Below are positions 2,305 through 38,564 of a stretch of 64,000 nt of DNA, piece after piece. The stretch lies in the NCBI GenBank assembly GCA_963787835.1, contig CAWBEI010000002.1, positions 512,001 through 576,000 on the forward strand, written 5' to 3'. Position 1 is the first letter of the stretch, and the number at the start of each line of letters is the position of its first letter. The translations under genes and the position numbers were made by a program. The notes beneath the pieces are model-generated. The model saw only the letters and a program-made list of their open reading frames with translations. It searched no databases and was not told the origin of the DNA. The DNA comes from Ignavibacteriota bacterium (GTDB taxonomy: Bacteria > Bacteroidota > Ignavibacteria > Palsa-1295).

Positions 2305-2621
2305 GAAATGCTTGGCAGTGTGTTTGTTCTTTTGGAGTTCATGAACTGTCGCGTTATAGACTCGGAAACGCCATCTGTTCTTTCGGCAAAGTGCCATCAT
2401 ATTTTTTTTACATATTCATTTAATGAACTTTTTTCTCGCTCGAATCAACTATTCATGAATTCAAGCGTCATTACGTTCGAAATTCCCATCCTTCTTTAAT
2501 CTTTAAGATCCATCCTTTCTTAATCCTGAAAATCCTGTAAATCGTGGTCTAATTTACACTTTCCGAAACAGGTGCCCATAATCCCACTCTCAAACATACA
2601 ACATCCCAAACCCAAAAGCAA
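2305..2621 (-). other. Diverged copy (C) of the GGCACCT non-coding element
   Basis: Minus strand reads TTGCTT-N17-TATGTT, ATGGGCACCT, then AGAACAGATGGCG-N28-GAACTC, matching blocks and spacing of the copy at 22474. Confidence 0.5.
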
Positions 2622-18722: not shown

Positions 18723-19070
18723 AATCCCGAAAGGACGGCATATTTGCAGCCCCGGACGTGAGTCCGGGGTTTTGCGTTTTGTATAAACGCGTAGGTCGGT
18801 GCTTCCATCGTGGGCGATGGAGCCAGCCCGACAATCCCCGAGAACGAAAGAAAAAGTGCCGTAGGGACGTGCTGCGCACGTCCTTTGTGCCGGAGCGCTA
18901 ATTCCAGATTTTGGATGATCTCAAATTCGTTTGACATTCACCGGGGCGGACGTGCGCAGCACGTCCCTACGGATCCAGCTCCGATATGAGCGGCATATTG
19001 GTAGCCCCGTGCGTAAGCGCGGGGTGCGCGGGATCTTTTTAAGAGCCAGAGTCCCGGAGCGACGACACAA
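18723..19070. repeat. Cluster of REP-like palindromes (left boundary of the accessory patch)
   Basis: CCCCGGACGTGAGTCCGGGG; GTAGGGACGTGCTGCGCACGTCC (18861) with its inverse (18948-18970); AGTCCCGGAGCGACGACACAAA. Confidence 0.8.
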
Positions 19071-19073
19071 AAA

Positions 19074-19294
19074 AGTGCCGGAGGCACGAAGTACCCGCAG
19101 CCCAGGGTGGAGCGAAGCGGAACCCTGGGTAACGAATAAAATTAGAGTTTATTAGCCCTGAAAGGGCGATGTTTGCCGCCGGGATTTTACAACGCCCTTT
19201 CAGGGCTTGGGAACATAAAACGCAACGCTAACCCAGGGTTCCGCTCGCAAGCTCGCTTCACCCTGGGCTGCGAGTACTCCGTCGCTCCGCGACT
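19074..19294. repeat. Non-autonomous REP composite (MITE/REPIN-like)
   Basis: GCAGCCCAGGG...CCCTGGG, AGCCCTGAAAGGGCG/CGCCCTTTCAGGGCT, ends GGGCTGCGAGTACTCCGTCGCTCCGCGACTA. Confidence 0.85.
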
Positions 19295-19300
19295 AATTGC

Positions 19301-20197
19301 TCATTCAATTATTGGAACTATCTGAATTTTGTTGGACAGTTCGGTACGACCGAAACTTTTCAGGAAGGATTGCAGGGCGTTGAAGCCGGATTGGTCAGGT
19401 ACGACGATTTCCAAAACATCCTCATCGTTGAACGTTAAGTTGAATTCGGGCTTTAACCATTTATCGTCAGAACCAGCGTCAATAGTTTCGTCGCCCTTAA
19501 AACCATGAGGAGACAGTGCGCGCCATTCCCTCTCATCATAATTGCGAATGCGCTCTCCGGTTGGGAGATTTTCTTCGTAGCAGCGCATATAGGAGTCGCG
19601 ATCCTCAAGTTCATTGTGGAGCCTGCGTATAGCCCACATTAGAGCACTGAAGGTTTGCCGCATTGCTTCATCTTCTGGCAGGTTGCCATCTGCAATCGCA
19701 ACTAATTCCCGCATGTATTTTTCGAGTTTGCCGTGTTCGGTTCGAAGAGCCGTTGGGTCCATTGGCGTTCCATCTCCATATTGCTCAGAGAGTTCACGGA
19801 GTCTTGATGCCTGCAACATTTGCAAATAACTTCTGTCCGAACTATATGGCTCCGGCAACACGTCCGGCAAATGATTTAAGTTCTTGAATGCTAAGTACGA
19901 GCCTCCGACACCTACGGAGTCAGTATGCACATAACGGACGGGCGAAATCCGATTTTTTATTCCCCATTCCTTTGTCAAACCAATGGCCACCGGACGCGCT
20001 TTGCGAAGGTGTGGAGCGTCAGATGAAGGCAGGTCGCAAAAACAAACAACATAATTGGTCTGCGTGTAAGGAAACTTGGGGTATGGAACCGTTTCGACCT
20101 GTTTAGAATAGCGGAACCCGCCACAGGCCAGAATCGATTTGCATGCCTCTAATGATGTATAATGGAAAAGCGTGTCAGTACTGATCTTATTGGGCAT
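19301..20197 (-). CDS. AbiGi-family abortive-infection protein
   Basis: TLFHYT, VCFCDLP, IGLTKEWG..N.ISPVRY and YDEREWR motifs. Confidence 0.75.
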   Translation of the reverse strand: MPNKISTDTLFHYTSLEACKSILACGGFRYSKQVETVPYPKFPYTQTNYVVCFCDLPSSDAPHLRKARPVAIGLTKEWGIKNRISPVRYVHTDSVGVGGSYLAFKNLNHLPDVLPEPYSSDRSYLQMLQASRLRELSEQYGDGTPMDPTALRTEHGKLEKYMRELVAIADGNLPEDEAMRQTFSALMWAIRRLHNELEDRDSYMRCYEENLPTGERIRNYDEREWRALSPHGFKGDETIDAGSDDKWLKPEFNLTFNDEDVLEIVVPDQSGFNALQSFLKSFGRTELSNKIQIVPIIE

Positions 20198-20222
20198 ATC
20201 CCCTCCAAAATTTTACATTATT

Positions 20223-20640
20223 TTACGCCTTCAAAAACCCCAGCTCATACACCATTGGCTGTAACTTTTCCGTCAATGCTTTGTAGGCCGATTCGAAGGG
20301 TTTGAAGCTGACGGGCGGGAAATCGCCGCTTTCGTTACGAGCTTGCAACGCCTTGCGGATTTGATACCACCCCACATCCGCGCGGTTTAGTTTTAGTTCT
20401 TCGCGGACGGTGTGAACGTCAGTATCGGCAAAATATGCTTTCCACAATGCTTTTCCGGCTTCGAGCACTGCGCTGGCTTCTTTCGAGAATTTCTTACCGC
20501 GCATATATTGCACCATAAAATCGCTCTCGAACCTGTCGGGCGCGCCGACCTCTTTTTCAGTGAAGGGAATGAAATGGTTCACGATGCTCCACTTCTTTCC
20601 GTTCCATTCTAAATCGTTGGCGCTGGCGGTGAGGTTGCTG
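20223..20640 (-). pseudogene. C-terminal fragment of a large restriction-modification-like protein (resembles the Borrelia BBE02 family)
   Basis: WSIVNHFIPFTEKEVGA..RFESDFM, DVGWYQIR, L.PMVYELGFL; the 5' part is cut by a REP element. Confidence 0.6.
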
Positions 20641-20650
20641 CCTAAGAATT

Positions 20651-21171
20651 TAGTCCCGAAGGGATGGTGTACTCGCAGCCCAGGGTGTAGCGTAGCGGAA
20701 CCCTGGGTTCGAGGTAGGTATAAATTTCTAAGCCCCGAAGGGGCGATGTACCTAATCATCGTCCTTCAAAAAATATTTTGGATCGTATTCAATCCCTGCC
20801 GCTTTCAACATATCCTCAAACTCTTCTTGGAACGTCTTATGACGATGATGTTCCTCTTGATTTTCGATGTATTGCGCGACATTCTTGAGATGACTTGCGC
20901 TTACGCTGAATACACCATAACCGCCTTGCCAGCTAAAATCTTTTCCTAATTTTGATTTCAACCAAGCCGATGATTTCGATTTTATCTCACGAACGACGGT
21001 TGCGACCGACGATTCACGACCGAGATCGATCAGGAGGTGCACATGATCAGGCATTCCGCCTTCCATAATCAATCGCGCCTTGCATTCGTGCAAGATCGGA
21101 GGTTAACCCAACATTCCGTCCGCCGCGGCGGACTCCATGTTGGGCTGCGAGTACTCCGTCGCTCCGCGACT
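20651..21171 (-). mobile_element. REP-flanked IS200/RAYT-like element remnant
   Basis: Left half (20651-20747) and right half (21103-21171) of the composite repeat flank a tnpA remnant. Confidence 0.8.
20752..21093 (-). pseudogene. tnpA: IS200/IS605-family (Y1 HUH) transposase, 5'-truncated
   Basis: GGMPDHVHLL (HUH), FSWQGGYGVFSVS, YIENQEEHH; the N-terminal strand is missing. Confidence 0.9.
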
Positions 21172-21181
21172 ATTGAATCTC

Positions 21182-21378
21182 AGTGGCGAAGCCACGATGT
21201 ACTCGCAGCCCAGGGCGCGCGAAGCAAGCCCTGGGTCATGAATTTTAACAAAATCAAGCCCTGTAAGGGCGGTGTACTTCGCCCTTTCAGGGCTTGATAA
21301 AAATAAGAATGGTTCCGTTAACCCAACATTCCGCTTCGCTCCATGTTGGGCTGCGAGTACTCCGTCGCTCCGCGACTA
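21182..21378. repeat. Second non-autonomous REP composite
   Basis: Same architecture and identical 3' end as 19074-19294. Confidence 0.85.
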
Positions 21379-21817
21379 AGATTCGCCAACAAGTGCATCC
21401 ATGATTGGAATATTTCTCCGGCGGGAATTATCGTGCAAGCAACATGTCACGAGATTATCGTATGAATTATCCCCGCCTTTTGTGACAGGCTGAATGTGAT
21501 CGAGCGTCGCGCTGAATCGTGTTAGCTGCTTACCGCATTTGTAACACTTGTAGCCGTCCCGTTCGAAAATCTTGAGACGATTTTCAGCGACATTGTAAAA
21601 GAGTGCCGAATTCCACGACCGAGTGACGAAACAAATACCAATAGAATGCGGCCTCGTATGGTAACAATCGGGGCTGAAGAAAATCCACAATCTGACAGAC
21701 GATACCTGGATGTTCGAGAGCGTCGAAGTTTCTCTCGAACGAATCCGGAGCGGCAGCCTTTGAATCCGTTTCGATCTCGTTAAGCAGTTCTCGAATTTTT
21801 TCGATTTGTTCTTTCAT
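21376..21817 (-). pseudogene. HNH endonuclease, frameshifted or internally deleted
   Basis: N-terminal frame (MKEQIEK...) switches near 21600 to a frame with FERDGYKCYKCG...LDHIQP..KGG.NSYDNLVTCC. Confidence 0.75.
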
Positions 21818-22265
21818 ATTTTTACAAAATTACGAATAAACTCATCTTCCTGCGTTTCGATCTTGAAGGAAACGAGGTGCGTACCGATATACTGCGAGAC
21901 GGTGTCCAGCGCTTCCTGCGTAACGTCGCTCGCCCGCTTGCCCCACTTGATCGTCTTTTTTTCGAGGAACGGAATAACGTCCGCGCTCTTCATTATAGCC
22001 GCTTTCTGCGTATCGACCACCGCAAGAAATGGCGGAACATACTCGCCCTTGTTCAATGCCTGCTGCACATAATGCAGACCGCCGCGGCGGACGTGAACAT
22101 CGCATAACTGGAAAGCTTGGAGTTATCCTTCGCCTCGAACCAAATTTCTTTGGTTTGAATATCGATCAGGTTTTTCGAATACCCCTTCAACCCCAGCGCC
22201 TTGATGTAAATATCCTTCACATCCTCCTCGCTTTTGCACTGTTTCAGTTTTTCAAAGAGGGTCAT
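21814..22265 (-). pseudogene. N-terminal fragment of the same restriction-modification-like protein, frameshifted
   Basis: SEEDVKD...ID...WFEAK PD-(D/E)xK-like start; frame break at the palindrome at 22079-22090; continues QQALNKGEYVPPFLAVVD. Confidence 0.6.
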
Positions 22266-22267
22266 GC

Positions 22268-22349
22268 GTGTGAAGGGTTATGGATTGGGTTATGAATTCG
22301 GGATTGATGCTTTGCGGGCGCGGGAAAGAACATAGTGGGCACCTATTTC
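22268..22349 (+). other. Partial 3' copy (D) of the GGCACCT element
   Basis: GTGTGAAGGG...TTATGAAT...AAGAACATAGTGGGCACCTATTTC resembles the 3' half of the copy at 36086. Confidence 0.45.
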
Positions 22350-22369
22350 GTGTTCCATCCATCCCACGA

Positions 22370-22462
22370 TTTGTGCCGTCCCTCCGGGACTTTTAACTCT
22401 AAAAAAATCGCTAACCCCGGACTCACGTCCGGGGCTACGAATATGTCGTGCCTATCGGCACT
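22370..22462. repeat. REP-like right boundary
   Basis: TTTGTGCCGTCCCTCCGGGACT and AACCCCGGACTCACGTCCGGGGCT are near-exact reverse complements of sequences at ~19050 and ~18746. Confidence 0.8.
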
Positions 22463-22473
22463 AAGAAAATAAT

Positions 22474-22731
22474 TTGGAATTTTGAGGCGTCTCGGAAAAG
22501 TGTCGTATATTAGGTGGTGAGATGATGGGCACCTATATCAATTACGAATTAAGAATTACGAATTAAGAGTAGGGGCTCGGGGTTCATTGACAATCGTCGG
22601 CGGTGGCTTTCGTTATGAACGAGTCCTTTGAGAAAATGGATTTTACTATTCTTTCAGAACAAATGGCGAAAGCAGCTCGGAAACGAGGGGTCTTCGGGAA
22701 CTCACAAGAAAAAGAAATGGCACCTATTTCC
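22474..22731 (+). other. Conserved dispersed non-coding element, copy A (candidate ncRNA or mobile promoter)
   Basis: Long identical blocks shared with the reverse complement of 36086-36354. Confidence 0.75.
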
Positions 22732-22854
22732 AATAGAACATTAGTAAGGGTGGTAAACATTTTTACCTACGTACCGGGAAACGGGAAGGAGCAAAATTCG
22801 TTGTGAAGGTACTCTGGCACGTTTAGCCGGAACATCCTCCATAATCACGACACG

Positions 22855-24114
22855 TTGCCTTTGATCGAACCACCCTCCACTCCCACTGGAAATCCGGTCC
22901 CGCCGGATCTGCCACCCGATCCACATATCATGGATTACGTGGTGCTTGCGACCAGCCGTAAGTGGACTATGCTTGCGATCACGCTCCTGTGCGGGTTTGG
23001 AGCGCTGGCACTTACCTATATGTTGCCACAGGTGTTCATGGCGCAGGCGACGTTGCTGCCGCCGGATCGGCTATCCTCCTATAACCTTCTATCGAAGTTC
23101 AAGTCGGGTTTCGCCTTGGAAATGTTGAAGGAGGTGGAAAATCCCTCCGTCGATCTGCTCCAGAATATTCTGGAATCCCGTTCGCTCGATGAGCGGCTCG
23201 CTCAGGATAGTGCGATCCATCGCTATTTTAGCGCGCAGGGTCTGCATGGGAAAGAGTTGGTCCTTGCCGTCCAAAAATCGATCAAGGTTTTACCAGGATT
23301 TTCGAAAGTGGATGTTCAGGGAACCGTGGGTACAGGTTGGTTCCCAACCGGAGCGCAAAAGGAGAATGCCAGGGTAATGTCATCGTATTTCACGAATCTG
23401 GCGATCGACTGTATGGATAGTACGCTCCGAGCGGCTATTCGTTCTTTGGCTCACTCGACGATGCTGTTTGCCGATTCCGATTATGCGCTTAAGAGCCGGG
23501 AATTGGATTCTCTTGACCGCGTTCAGGAAGCGTTTGAGCAAGCCAACGGAGTCGTGAAATTGGAGGCACAAACCATAGCTTCCATCGAGCATTTGGGCGA
23601 ACTGAAAGCTGCTCGCGATGAGGCAGAGATCAAACTCCACCTCCTCGAATTGGACTTGTCCGATGATGACACTAAAAAGGAAGAGGCCGTTGCAAAGCTG
23701 AATGAAGCTGAGTTCGTCGCCAACACGTATGAAACGGAACGGCAGATCGGCCCCGCATTCGACTCGCTTCCGGAAGTAAGCCGGCGTTATGCAGAATTAC
23801 TTCGTTCCAGGAAAGAATTGGAACCGATTGTTTCCTTCCTCCGAATAGAAACCGAGCAACAGCGGATCTTCGAGGTTCGAGAAAAATCCTTTATCACAGT
23901 TTTAGATCCTGCGGAACCTCCGGAAACCCGGATTAGCCCGATACGATCCCAGATGGGAATTCTGGGATTGATTGTCGGCGCCGCTCTTTCGATCCTGTAT
24001 ATGGCCTTCTATGGGCTGCGTCTTTCCTGGAAGAAGGAGCGAAAATCGCGCAATGAGACCAGACCGGAAGTATTAGAAGCCGCAAAGAGCATCTTTGCCC
24101 ATAATAACCTATGA
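22855..24114 (+). CDS. Wzz/GumC-like polysaccharide chain-length determinant
   Basis: Two terminal TM helices, AQATLLPP, coiled-coil middle, VLDPAEPPE..SP.R. Confidence 0.85.
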   Translation: MPLIEPPSTPTGNPVPPDLPPDPHIMDYVVLATSRKWTMLAITLLCGFGALALTYMLPQVFMAQATLLPPDRLSSYNLLSKFKSGFALEMLKEVENPSVDLLQNILESRSLDERLAQDSAIHRYFSAQGLHGKELVLAVQKSIKVLPGFSKVDVQGTVGTGWFPTGAQKENARVMSSYFTNLAIDCMDSTLRAAIRSLAHSTMLFADSDYALKSRELDSLDRVQEAFEQANGVVKLEAQTIASIEHLGELKAARDEAEIKLHLLELDLSDDDTKKEEAVAKLNEAEFVANTYETERQIGPAFDSLPEVSRRYAELLRSRKELEPIVSFLRIETEQQRIFEVREKSFITVLDPAEPPETRISPIRSQMGILGLIVGAALSILYMAFYGLRLSWKKERKSRNETRPEVLEAAKSIFAHNNL

Positions 24115-35190: not shown

Positions 35191-35694
35191 TCATCCCATA
35201 AAAAGATACGGCTCCCAGTCCTTATCGACCCTGCCGATGAATTGCCGCAGGAACGTCACATGGTTCGGGCGGATGGGACGGCGGGCCAGCACCATCTGGG
35301 CTTCATCTGGCGTCTGGCTGCCTTTTACGTTATTGCACCGAATGCACGCGCTGACCAGATTTTCCCACGAATCCTCGCCACCACGGCTTTTCGGCATGAT
35401 GTGATCGACAGTGAGCGTAACGCTCGTCGCGCCGCAATATTGGCAGCGGTGACCATCCCGCCGCAGAATATTCTTCCTCGAAAGGATCACCTTCTTGAAT
35501 GGCACCCGAACATACGAGGATAGCCGGATCACGCTCGGAAAGGGCATCGTAACAGAGGTCGAGTGAACGGCCTTTCCCGTCATGCTGCTGACGAGTTCCG
35601 CCTTATCCAAATACAGCAAAATGATCGCCTTTTCGACATTTGTGATCGCTAATGGCTCGTAATTGCCATTGAGAATGAGGACCTTACCACCCAG
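35191..35694 (-). CDS. HNH endonuclease (conserved VLILNxxYEPL family)
   Basis: RRDGHRCQYCG, LTVDHIMPKSRGG, WENLVSACIRCN; the frame extends upstream to KVLILNGNYEPL. CTG start inferred. Confidence 0.85.
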   Translation of the reverse strand: MGGKVLILNGNYEPLAITNVEKAIILLYLDKAELVSSMTGKAVHSTSVTMPFPSVIRLSSYVRVPFKKVILSRKNILRRDGHRCQYCGATSVTLTVDHIMPKSRGGEDSWENLVSACIRCNNVKGSQTPDEAQMVLARRPIRPNHVTFLRQFIGRVDKDWEPYLFMG

Positions 35695-36085
35695 TTTGGA
35701 GTGCGCCTGACTAAATTCCTGATCGTCTTCGGGGGTGTCGAATAACCCCAGCGAGCGCGGCTGGGAGGAGCTAAACTTATGGCGATGCTCCGGAGATCGT
35801 GGGCGATGCTCCGCACCGGATCTCGTTCTTCGAGACCCTAACGATGCGGGTCGCTTATATTTGTGTGCTTCGAATGCGGCAGACTCCTTCTAATCACTAT
35901 TTGTAATGTTCCGAATGCGTCACCAGTTCCCCTAACCAAATTATGCTATTGTTGCCTATAAAAAAACGCATCTGAGCTTCCTGGACTTCTATCCTGCATT
36001 TCATGAATCCGAGCGTTTTCTTTCACCCCGAAACGCATGGTTCCCGTTTTTCATGCTTCATAATTCATACTTCATAATTTCCCCA

Positions 36086-36354
36086 GGAAATAGGTGCCAT
36101 TTCTTTTTCTTGTGAGTTCCCGGTTATCCACATCGCACCCATCGAAATTCGCTCATTTTTGCCATTCGTTGAAACAAGTATTCATAAAAGTCCCTTCACA
36201 CAGAACTCGTTCATAACGAAACCTACCACTAATTGTCAATGAACGACCTAAGCCCCTACTCTTAATTCGTAATTCTTAATTCTTAATTGATCAAGGTGCC
36301 TATCATCTCACCACCTAATATACGACACTTTTCTCGCCCGCCACGAAATTCCAA
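36086..36354 (-). other. Conserved dispersed non-coding element, copy B
   Basis: Reverse complement matches 22474-22731 in blocks. Confidence 0.75.
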
Positions 36355-36363
36355 TTTTCGGGA

Positions 36364-36451
36364 AGTCCCGTTAGGGACGGCCCGTTTGTAGAACGCGATT
36401 ATTTTTTTTGTATCAAGGTTCTACAAACGCGCCACGCCTACGACGTTGTCA
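36364..36451. repeat. REP-like palindrome, family of 2654-2799
   Basis: CGGCCCGTTTGTAGAA...TTCTACAAAC..GCCACGCCTACG. Confidence 0.75.
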
Positions 36452-36506: not shown

Positions 36507-38564
36507 TCAATGCGCCACCACCACGCTCCGCGACTGCACATACCCTCCCGCCGACACCCGAACAAAATAGATTCCCGATGGAACGTTCGTTACATCGACC
36601 GAAATCCCATTGTGTAGGGACGTGCTGCGCACGTCCTGCCCCCTTCCTAACGCATCATACATTTCGATAACCGGCTGAACATTCCCCGATAGCTGCATCG
36701 TGATCTCATCCTGCGCCGGATTCGGCTGAATGCCCATAATGCTGAACGGTGCTCCTGAGTTCGAGGCAGTCACTGTATTTACCCCAGCCAGCGTATCAGC
36801 CACACCGACGCCAACGGCGCGGATCGTATCGACTTGAGCGGACTCGCCATCAAACCAATAGATGAATATACTTCCCCGCTCGGTATCCGCGATCGTGGGC
36901 TTGAAGGAAAGTGTGAATGACCTTGGAATGCTGCCCGGCGTAAAGCTCGTGGTGATATTTGTAAAACTAAAATCTTTAAATTGCGTGCTATCCGGATAAA
37001 AGATCATGCTATCAACGGTAGCCTGCTCGCAGCCATGCGCGGCGACCGTAAATGTATCTCGCTTGGTAGCAGCTTCGCGTAACTTTTGCGAACCGAAATC
37101 ATAAAGCGAATTTGTAATGAGATCGAGAAGACTGGGATTTGGCTGGATGACGAGTGTTACATGAAACGTCGTGTCAGCGTCTAAATAATCATCGTCGGTA
37201 TAATGAGTATGAATGGTGAGCGGATATGTGCCTGGTTTTTTCGGAAGGAACGTGACCCATGCCGAGTTTGCCTGACCGGTACTCCACGGATAATTCATGC
37301 TCGAAACAGAGTAGGTTGCTATGCTTGAATCGATACCATCAATTGTTACGTCTGTAAGCCCACCGTAGTCGTTCTTGTCTGCTATGAATTGAAGCCAGAG
37401 CGAAAGCGAGGCAGAGTCGCATAATTTAGTTACAAGCGAATCGCCGGAAGCACCGGCCATCAGAGTATGCCCTGTCGTCACCGTGGAATGCACCACCGAA
37501 GAAAGTGTCCCATCACCACCGTCCGTGGTTTTCCAAAGATTGTTTTGGTAATCGACCGCATAAACCACCGCGCCGTGACCTGTTACAGAGAGCGTTGCGC
37601 CAAAGTTAATATTATCGGGCCCCCCGACGTTCGTCCATGTCTCGCCATAATCAGTTGAGCGTTCCAATCCAATGTTGGCAGGCACACGTGTAGGAACGCT
37701 CGGGTCTTGTATTCCGCATTGAACATAAACCACAAAGCCATCACCGCCGCCTACATTGATATTAGTTCCAGCGACACCATTTCCAGTATCACGTGACCAT
37801 ACCGTAAAAAATGAGTATCCCCCGTCGGTGGAACGTTGAATAATGCTTCCATTAGAATATGGTGCAGATGCATCAAATGAAAAAATGTAATTGGGATTGT
37901 GTGGTATTGCATAATCAGACTCTCCTGGAGTATATCTGCCGGCTGAATTTTGCCATTCGATCCACGTCTGACCTAAATCCTGAGACGTAATGTTGATCTG
38001 TGAAACAAGAGATTCACGATTACCCGTGATAATTATCGACGAATTATTAGGATGCCATACCCAGGTCTTCCCTTGGTCTGTGGAATAACCATTAGGATAA
38101 AAAATTGCCGAACCAACTGCATAAAGTTGTCCATATTCGGTATCCGTTGAAATGTGTGACCAGGTATTTCCGCTGTCCAGCGTCTCGTAGATTCCTGCCA
38201 TTTCATCCTCAGGAATGTAGCCGCTGTAGTCAATGTACGGGTATGGCGCTGCACTCATATATCCCTGAGAAGGTGAAACGAAATACATACTACTAATCAG
38301 ACCCCAATGATTTTGGAGATTTCTATCCCCGAGATTCATCTTAATCCAATTCGTGCCGCCATCTGTCGTGCAGTAAACAGCAAGTGTGTCAGTGGCCCGC
38401 CAGCTCTCTCCTTGCCCAATGGTAAAGACAAAGCCATAATTCTCATTCAAAAAGTAAGTACCAATGTTTTGTTGGAACGATGCGATTTGTGTCCACTGCG
38501 AGTCTGCCCTGGAAGTGGCAAATAAAACCAACGAAAAAAGAAGGGATTTGACGAGGGTGCGCAT
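36507..38564 (-). CDS. BNR-repeat protein with T9SS CTD
   Basis: Signal peptide, TxDGGxxW repeats, IQPNPA...YDALGR...GIYFVRV. Confidence 0.88.
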   Translation of the reverse strand: MRTLVKSLLFSLVLFATSRADSQWTQIASFQQNIGTYFLNENYGFVFTIGQGESWRATDTLAVYCTTDGGTNWIKMNLGDRNLQNHWGLISSMYFVSPSQGYMSAAPYPYIDYSGYIPEDEMAGIYETLDSGNTWSHISTDTEYGQLYAVGSAIFYPNGYSTDQGKTWVWHPNNSSIIITGNRESLVSQINITSQDLGQTWIEWQNSAGRYTPGESDYAIPHNPNYIFSFDASAPYSNGSIIQRSTDGGYSFFTVWSRDTGNGVAGTNINVGGGDGFVVYVQCGIQDPSVPTRVPANIGLERSTDYGETWTNVGGPDNINFGATLSVTGHGAVVYAVDYQNNLWKTTDGGDGTLSSVVHSTVTTGHTLMAGASGDSLVTKLCDSASLSLWLQFIADKNDYGGLTDVTIDGIDSSIATYSVSSMNYPWSTGQANSAWVTFLPKKPGTYPLTIHTHYTDDDYLDADTTFHVTLVIQPNPSLLDLITNSLYDFGSQKLREAATKRDTFTVAAHGCEQATVDSMIFYPDSTQFKDFSFTNITTSFTPGSIPRSFTLSFKPTIADTERGSIFIYWFDGESAQVDTIRAVGVGVADTLAGVNTVTASNSGAPFSIMGIQPNPAQDEITMQLSGNVQPVIEMYDALGRGQDVRSTSLHNGISVDVTNVPSGIYFVRVSAGGYVQSRSVVVAH

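Follow-up and report, generated by a model that had tools for sequence, protein, structure and literature searches.

A dispersed, gene-less repeat with a predicted LexA-controlled promoter lies at the edge of variable islands in an Ignavibacteriota genome

We found that the genome under study (G000; 3.57 Mb, 7 contigs) carries a real, apparently undescribed family of gene-less repeats, 51 full and ~20 partial copies or ~70 in all, which sit at one edge of variable DNA. Each copy starts with a conserved predicted promoter, and its GGCACC boxes are most likely operators of the SOS repressor LexA. The element is likely a damage-triggered anchor for gene exchange, and not a guide RNA, because a predicted LexA-switched promoter stands at the fixed end of a swappable island. 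Our best explanation, which we hold tentatively, is that the copies serve as SOS-switched DNA anchors for one-ended island replacement by recombination. No description of the box, the element or the operon discussed below was found in the open-access literature. Related genomes are named G001, G002 and so on.

Results

A multicopy repeat family

Two full copies, A and B, lie as an inverted pair in the window, the 64,000-nucleotide stretch that was analysed (Table 1). The blocks that an earlier sequence-only reading had listed for them (22474-22731 on the plus strand, 36086-36354 on the minus strand) are present in both, segment I1 being 89% identical over 107 nt and I5 100% identical over 37 nt. 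Throughout G000, pairwise identity of copies is 79-87% over 230-260 nt and higher in the blocks. The element profile gave 79 nhmmer matches in this genome, and the head pattern gave 81 matches vs 9 and 14 in two shuffles; a body motif follows 70 heads, the lexA leader counted in. As that reading had stated, the copies share no open reading frame (the box-to-box lengths of 94 copies are divided 31/32/31 among the three frames), terminal inverted repeats were not observed, and no known family is recognisable, an Rfam search with gathering and E-value thresholds returning no element match. Its heptamer-array block ending AAGAGTAGGGGCT is no family feature, because only 2 exact copies exist, and the spacers that it took as largely unrelated fall into a few shared classes of quantised length.

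The orientation of the copies is largely independent of neighbouring genes and weakly related to GC skew (43/70). On the largest contig (G000:C2), the minimum gap between any two of the 35 copies is 9.6 kb (mean 53 kb).

Anatomy of the element

The extent proposed earlier lies inside that of the family, which pairwise alignments carry to an AT-rich left edge ~45 bp before the -10 box TATATT and which loses conservation ~15 bp after the second GGCACC. A -35 of the TTGAC or TTGCWT type is present in 25/51 copies; copy A belongs to the class without it. The left GGCACC stands at a fixed distance from the -10 and is followed by a variable segment, often a heptamer array, and then in order by the GTTCATTGA block, a core of TTC-N5-GAA dyads, GGGAACTC, an A-rich run and the second GGCACC. 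The variable part after the first box consists mostly of the genome's own heptamer or other repeats. We counted 137 TTC-N5-GAA dyads in 51 copies vs 7.3 in shuffles, a number that shared descent inflates. Type II copies have a different middle module, which is present in the lexA leader too, and this leader (L011:2116-2320) shares modules with the family at 84-91% over 45-56 bp. The earlier suggestion of a mobile promoter or shared leader thereby gains some ground from the -10 box conserved in every copy and from the modules common to the lexA leader, and the earlier interpretation as a whole is partly supported.

Two further observations concern the modules. In the genus of G000 the lexA leader is long and made of element modules, with operators in 16-bp tandem; the lexA leaders examined in other genera are short. 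Back-to-back heads occur at G000:C2:461329/461405, C4:49400/49587 and C5:197858/198140, where a second predicted SOS-boxed promoter points away from the element and into cargo (methylase, SIR2-like and unassigned genes).

Table 1 Positions of the element, its parts and its neighbours. Coordinates refer to the window unless a contig or locus is named.
Feature	Position	Strand	Remarks
Copy A, full element, AT-rich left edge to end of conserved tail	22461..22739	+	box-to-box 191 bp
-10 box TATATT, copy A	22506..22511	+	each position 94-100% conserved in 51 copies
Predicted left operator GGTGAG-ATGATG-GGCACC, copy A	22516..22533	+	10/12 matches to predicted LexA box; over predicted transcription start
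Heptamer array, variable segment, copy A	22540..22569	+	repeat type seen elsewhere in window
GTTCATTGACAAT block, copy A	22582..22594	+	missing from 10/94 copies
Central core, copy A, two TTC-N5-GAA-type dyads (22609-22619, 22624-22634)	22608..22634	+	predicted protein-binding sites
TGGCGAAA and GGGAACTC blocks, copy A	22664..22703	+	spacings 46 or 56-57 and 31-32 or 42-43 bp
Right GGCACC, copy A, half-operator only	22719..22724	+	followed by TATTTC-N5-GAA
Copy B	36078..36367	-	-10 36322-36317, left operator (predicted) 36312-36295, right half-operator 36098-36093; box-to-box 202 bp
Partial, divergent copy	2327..2603	-	upstream of ECF-sigma-like ORF
Extra GGCACC half-site	22338..22343	+	190 bp upstream of copy A left box, before first minus-strand cargo ORF
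REP-type hairpin (Rfam Acido-Lenti-1)	22415..22462	+	abuts copy A left edge
Cargo island, promoter side of copy A	18729..22450	-	AbiGi, Y1 transposase piece, HNH piece
wzz-like core gene downstream of copy A	22855..24114	+	in G002, element here with different cargo
T9SS-secreted protein gene, promoter side of copy B	36507..38564	-
HNH gene downstream of copy B	35191..35619	-
GTA-like head and lysis operon	G000:C2:822553-841105 (L379 covers 826000-845999)		terL, portal, protease, HK97 capsid, adaptor, SLT lysin
SOS-boxed 230-360 aa protein genes	G000:C2:1412325, 1382383, 5519, 9766; L311, L312, L318, L323, L328, L330, L344, L346

The GGCACC boxes are predicted SOS operators

GGCACC is half of the palindrome GGTGCC-N6-GGCACC, a relationship that the sequence-only reading had missed. 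With at least 9/12 matches, this palindrome occurs at all 18 lexA and all 15 recA promoters examined in the Kapabacteria-like family, also in relatives without the element and often in 16-bp tandem at lexA, and only 2/21 promoters of other families reach the same score. A canonical LexA is encoded (TIGR00498, 193.5 bits; cut-off 110.95). Because the boxes are halves of the palindrome found at the family's lexA and recA promoters, they are most likely its LexA operators. A matrix derived from other genomes gives the left box at least 5 bits in 46/51 copies vs 0.045% of background, although this matrix is not independent because its seed was taken from these same promoters. The right box is a half-site that scores below 0 with the palindromic matrix, and the sites of ssb, recQ, AlkD-like and Bro-N genes do likewise. 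Genes for ssb, dinB, recQ, AlkD-like, Bro-N and methylase proteins have a body-less head, consisting of the -10 and a half-site, in front of them, and the divergent dinB and DUF72 genes are separated by a region with half-sites.

Known LexA boxes are palindromic operators over the promoters of lexA, recA and repair genes, and the predicted arrangement here is the same. The TGC-N8-GCA geometry of the box presumably resembles that of the Fibrobacter box; a Fibrobacter-type motif was not found in a search of the open-access literature. GGTGCC-N6-GGCACC differs from all LexA boxes given in the available parts of PMC3091678 and PMC8565304. If the operator call holds, an uncultured Kapabacteria-like family gains a new SOS box, and a gene-less repeat, not repair genes, accounts for most of the high-scoring intergenic LexA sites predicted in G000.

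Several SOS boxes overlap an apparent start codon, ATG GGC ACC (L301, L342, L349, L353, L359), which suggests nearly leaderless SOS genes. Outside the family, lexA promoters (L032, L033, L036) carry another candidate palindrome, GTAGA-N5-TCTAC-like. We also observed a SOS-boxed multicopy family of 230-360 aa proteins without a Pfam match, with 4 copies in G000 and at least 6 in G046; its candidate identity is possibly an ImuA/RecA-fold protein.

Helical phasing of the body argues against an RNA

The box-to-box lengths cluster near 147, 158, 169, 180, 191, 202, 213, 225 and 235 bp, and these ~11-bp steps had escaped the earlier reading. The best period is 11.1 bp (R = 0.63, n = 51), two segments that are each unphased sum to a phased length (permutation p = 1e-4; 40/51 copies), and compensation of the two segments is seen in relatives as well (p = 0.005; 32 unique triples). 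These phasing statistics are overstated because the copies are related by descent; unique lengths alone give R = 0.32 at 10.5 bp (p = 0.02). A period of 11.1 bp lies near the helical repeat that repressor loops have in vivo. The fixed core measures 101, 111 or 122 bp, and several type II spacings (115, 116, 141, 149 and 150) are out of phase. The copies showed no IHF-consensus enrichment and no A-tract periodicity, and a loose Xer/dif pattern revealed no clear site in them.

Length steps of a DNA helical turn are not what one would expect if the copies made a multicopy, SOS-induced non-coding RNA of ~200 nt acting in trans. Such an RNA would suit the strong conserved predicted promoter of every copy, an orientation mostly independent of neighbours, and two inverted hexamer pairs that are 87-96% pairable. 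We nevertheless consider it improbable. The RNAalifold consensus of 41 copies reaches -0.83 kcal/mol and the folding z is -1.19, with no consensus fold. Anchored counts over 94 copies gave substitutions that are nearly all stem-breaking and none that is compensated. A GTTCAT/ATGAAC stem had been proposed from the sequence; in it and a second stem, 0/12 proposed pairs change on both sides, and 10 copies that lack the GTTCATT block still keep ATGAAC. No terminator was found on the sense strand of copy A, Rfam gave no match, and the polarity of the cargo described below would be left unexplained. The scaffold-plus-guide non-coding RNA suggested earlier, and a structured RNA in general, gained no support: neither covariation nor a consensus fold was seen, and the variable part is mostly genomic repeats. 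The element collects a pile-up of many copies in the unstranded contigs of RNA run X6 and equally in the DNA run, a pattern that carries no information on expression.

Copies cap variable islands on one side

The copies are polar, with variable DNA (defence, T9SS, REP/RAYT) on the promoter side and core genes opposite; this capping of islands on one side was also absent from the earlier reading. At 44 loci of relatives (41 distinct), a G000 homologue lies downstream in nearly all, and the upstream flank usually has no G000 homologue or one from another G000 copy. We compared 800 kb of G002, roughly 20% of its sequence, with G000. The upstream 3 kb was 76% unaligned and the downstream 14% (higher upstream in 13/14, p = 7e-4), and 15/15 copies lay at islands or breakpoints, with 0 within 548 kb of collinear blocks. 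Islands also form without the element, because 27/36 islands and 19/29 breakpoints carry none in either genome. In G000, upstream GC is lower in 59/69 copies, and T9SS-tail-like genes make up 27/171 upstream vs 10/222 downstream. For the sister family of G001, strong core matches lie downstream in 14/17 and upstream in 6/17, a count that omits 3/20 heads leading straight into genes.

Collinear islands with an element are ~2-6.5 kb long. Cargo genes run both ways (30 toward, 21 away); among them are those for restriction-modification, Schlafen helicase, RhuM, AbiGi, SIR2, T9SS proteins and Y1 transposases, and a homologue of the copy A cargo island is found, with an element, at another site in G002. 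The 25 island boundaries have no common far end, and three empty sites retain no box. A site-specific integrative unit with a GGCACC core should leave one core at empty sites and was rejected on this ground. Copies at the same locus are replaced: where a relative also has a copy ahead of the gene in question, it ranks among the three best matches of the G000 copy in just 5-6/18 cases per segment, copies at one locus are usually different variants, and in one G002 copy the head matches the upstream partner and the tail switches. Separately, cas1-cas2 genes were noticed in variable DNA of G002, a few kb from an element on its upstream side (L145:18439-19743).

The right end of the element is sharp and its left end is not shared. 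The stretch 40-90 bp before the -10 contains a REP end in 34% of copies vs 9% of controls, with REPs abutting the left edge in a single orientation, and Y1 transposase ORFs lie at most 6 kb upstream of 4/70 copies, with 9 Y1 loci in G000. These features would agree with a non-autonomous transposon whose only end is the element and which an HUH enzyme (RAYT/Y1 or rolling-circle type) mobilises in trans; it would capture upstream DNA at variable length and be licensed to move by the SOS promoter. We regard this as rather unlikely. The copies showed neither a GC-rich hairpin at an end, nor terminal inverted repeats, nor a duplicated target; G000 gave no Y2 transposase match, and neither did the control genomes; among recombinase and transposase families only Y1 recurs beside copies; and the REPs form families of their own, present at hundreds of other sites.

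One island splits two genes of the same orientation, and its element faces the downstream one. This arrangement, the lexA leader built of the same modules, and the 30 of 48 full copies that point into a gene (48 being those with a downstream ORF call, and the calls crude) would suit portable promoters re-supplying genes cut off by islands, or decoys that buffer LexA, in either case spreading passively. There is little to recommend such an account in the remaining 18/48, which face a convergent gene end, many within 11-85 bp of the stop; the earlier statement that full copies point into unrelated genes holds for the 30 and not for these. Several downstream genes, moreover, are housekeeping genes (rplJ, rpsL and thrS, named from N-terminal sequence) ill-suited to SOS repression, and complete relatives manage without expansion. 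We judge it improbable.

One head with different bodies across the family

The same element family occurs in four close relatives of G000. The head is present in 35/35 family genomes (1-40 exact matches; control 0-2), and the tail of the G000 element in 5/35. G001 and G038 have this head too, in multicopy elements whose bodies are not that of G000; different bodies behind one head expanded in separate lineages of the family. Three genomes show no expansion of heads over control (G008 4 vs 5, G010 11 vs 8, G011 5 vs 9, counted with a spacer range that includes the true 13 bp). One GTDB pattern scan, which was too loose, yielded the full element in only 3/116 loci, two of them in Ignavibacteriota records. 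IMG/VR gave 0 matches to the element tail pattern and 0 relatives of terL, and its 10 matches to the head pattern are chance-like.

The sister element of G001 (L289-L308) has a TCATTGAAAAC...GTTTTCAATGA inverted repeat and a box-to-box length of 140 bp in several copies. The third body, in G038 (L334, L336, L352-L358), stands before thrS and rpsL in 2/8 copies, like G000 copies, and one stretch of it may be loosely dif-like.

A conserved GTA-like head operon in the same family

A single HK97-type capsid gene was found in 31/35 family genomes and in 0/134 other class genomes searched. It belongs to a single-copy, syntenic operon (Table 1) under purifying selection, with conserved gene order, variable genes interleaved and dN/dS of 0.06-0.29. 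A full predicted operator heads the operon in G000 (strong, 16.3 bits), G002 and G003, and a half-site does so in G015. Terminase_6N misses the operon terL, which PHROGs detects; two ORFs that follow the adaptor gene stayed without an assignment. No integrase or replication genes were recognised among those neighbouring ORFs that were annotated.

Given the selected, SOS-boxed GTA-like head operon that the family retains, packaging could start at the copies, which would then be LexA-gated, pac-like sites of an SOS-controlled, domesticated GTA-like particle. Damage would then lead the terminase to cut at the element and to package one way over the cargo, which would arrive with the end copy, and the particle could be carrying the copies as selfish passengers. 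Besides the restriction of the capsid to the family among the class genomes searched, the conserved and selected operon and its predicted operator, this reading draws on the ~2-6.5 kb length of collinear islands with an element and on the core length, which is close to the ~100 bp that a TerS ring is proposed to wrap in the available text of PMC6854486. We think it unlikely, although it is the most probable of the rivals. Between the element profile and the operon leader, nothing but the box matches (E = 0.07); a pac site would lie in or beside terS or be homologous to that region, and the similarity is confined to the box. G008, G010 and G011 keep the capsid without the head expansion. The protein in the TerS position, upstream of terL, is acidic and a predicted helical hairpin (pLDDT 65) with no predicted HTH, and fold and family searches with it gave no match. 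G000 and G002 are discordant in terL (64% identity vs 93% for portal) though both share the element, and no tape-measure gene was found in G000. Finally, no discrete start sites of GTAs were known as of 2019, according to the available text of PMC6854486. The link between operon and element is circumstantial.

If packaging is true, damage would switch on the head operon and ~70 chromosomal start sites together, and islands of defence and surface-protein genes would be exported one way with a recombination anchor attached. The family would then have a site-directed gene transfer agent, a new route of island shuffling, and the idea that GTAs lack discrete start sites would be overturned.

Discussion

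How might a one-sided anchor work? We infer that LexA binds the boxes and that a second protein may occupy the TTC-N5-GAA dyads, the two together holding the module as a closed loop or wrap. Upon damage, LexA would be cleaved, the promoter would fire and RecA would be abundant. Incoming or intragenomic DNA ending in a copy would undergo a crossover with any resident copy within the conserved tail, and REP repeats, T9SS paralogues or microhomology would serve to join its far end. Cargo and element would thus move as a unit, new sites would arise, and inversions between copies would occur. The polarity of the copies could also be explained by a packaging start or a transposon end. For recombination at an anchor, the one-sided link to variable DNA offers a testable account of island turnover without integrase or transposase.

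Several known systems share parts of this design. In integrons with an SOS-controlled integrase, the attI/Pint region places a LexA-boxed promoter at one array end, pointing away from the array, and the element likewise has a predicted LexA-boxed promoter at one end of variable genes, pointing away. It differs in its ~70 sites and its cargo in both orientations (30/21), no attC-type sites were noted, and the three tyrosine recombinases of G000 are XerD, an XerC-like protein and a phage-type integrase; all three fall below the TIGR02249 (IntI) cut-off, and none is an integron integrase. One-ended transposition from oriIS of ISCR/IS91 elements involves a fixed end with an outward promoter, variable DNA opposite and no target duplication, all of which the element resembles. 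Unlike them, it has predicted LexA boxes at both module ends, and no Y2 match was obtained (control genomes likewise gave none).

MITEs, Correia/ERIC and REP/REPIN-RAYT repeats are also short, multicopy, intergenic and lineage-specific, and Correia repeats carry promoters. The element, in contrast, is not a hairpin, and the terminal inverted repeats and target duplication of a MITE or IS end were not found. Nor does it have the GTAG-footed GC-rich hairpin or doublet of REP/REPIN: REPs abut the element, and both they and the heptamer arrays are distinct repeats, inserted next to it or within it.

In the available parts of PMC6854486 and PMC12946183, the pac regions of phages SPP1, SF6 and P22 are phased, protein-binding DNA of ~100-200 bp with a promoter, like the element. 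Pac regions and GTAs have a one-directional effect on flanking DNA, as seen here, and GTAs such as RcGTA and FpGTA have a domesticated head operon, which this family has too; known GTAs package without discrete start sites in these same sources. The element differs from pac in that it is neither in or beside terS nor homologous to the operon leader.

By the loose definition given by Nijveen, Matus-Garcia and van Passel (2012, PMC3575422), the element counts as a putative mobile promoter, as its copies share at least 80% identity over 50 nt and have non-homologous neighbours. In the available text of that paper, such promoters are homologous, promoter-bearing non-coding DNA beside unrelated genes, as here, and their mode of movement is unknown. 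However, those families are mostly pairs (PMC3575422), whereas the element has ~70 copies in both orientations and, unlike them, combines a predicted SOS operator, phased spacing and variable DNA on one side.
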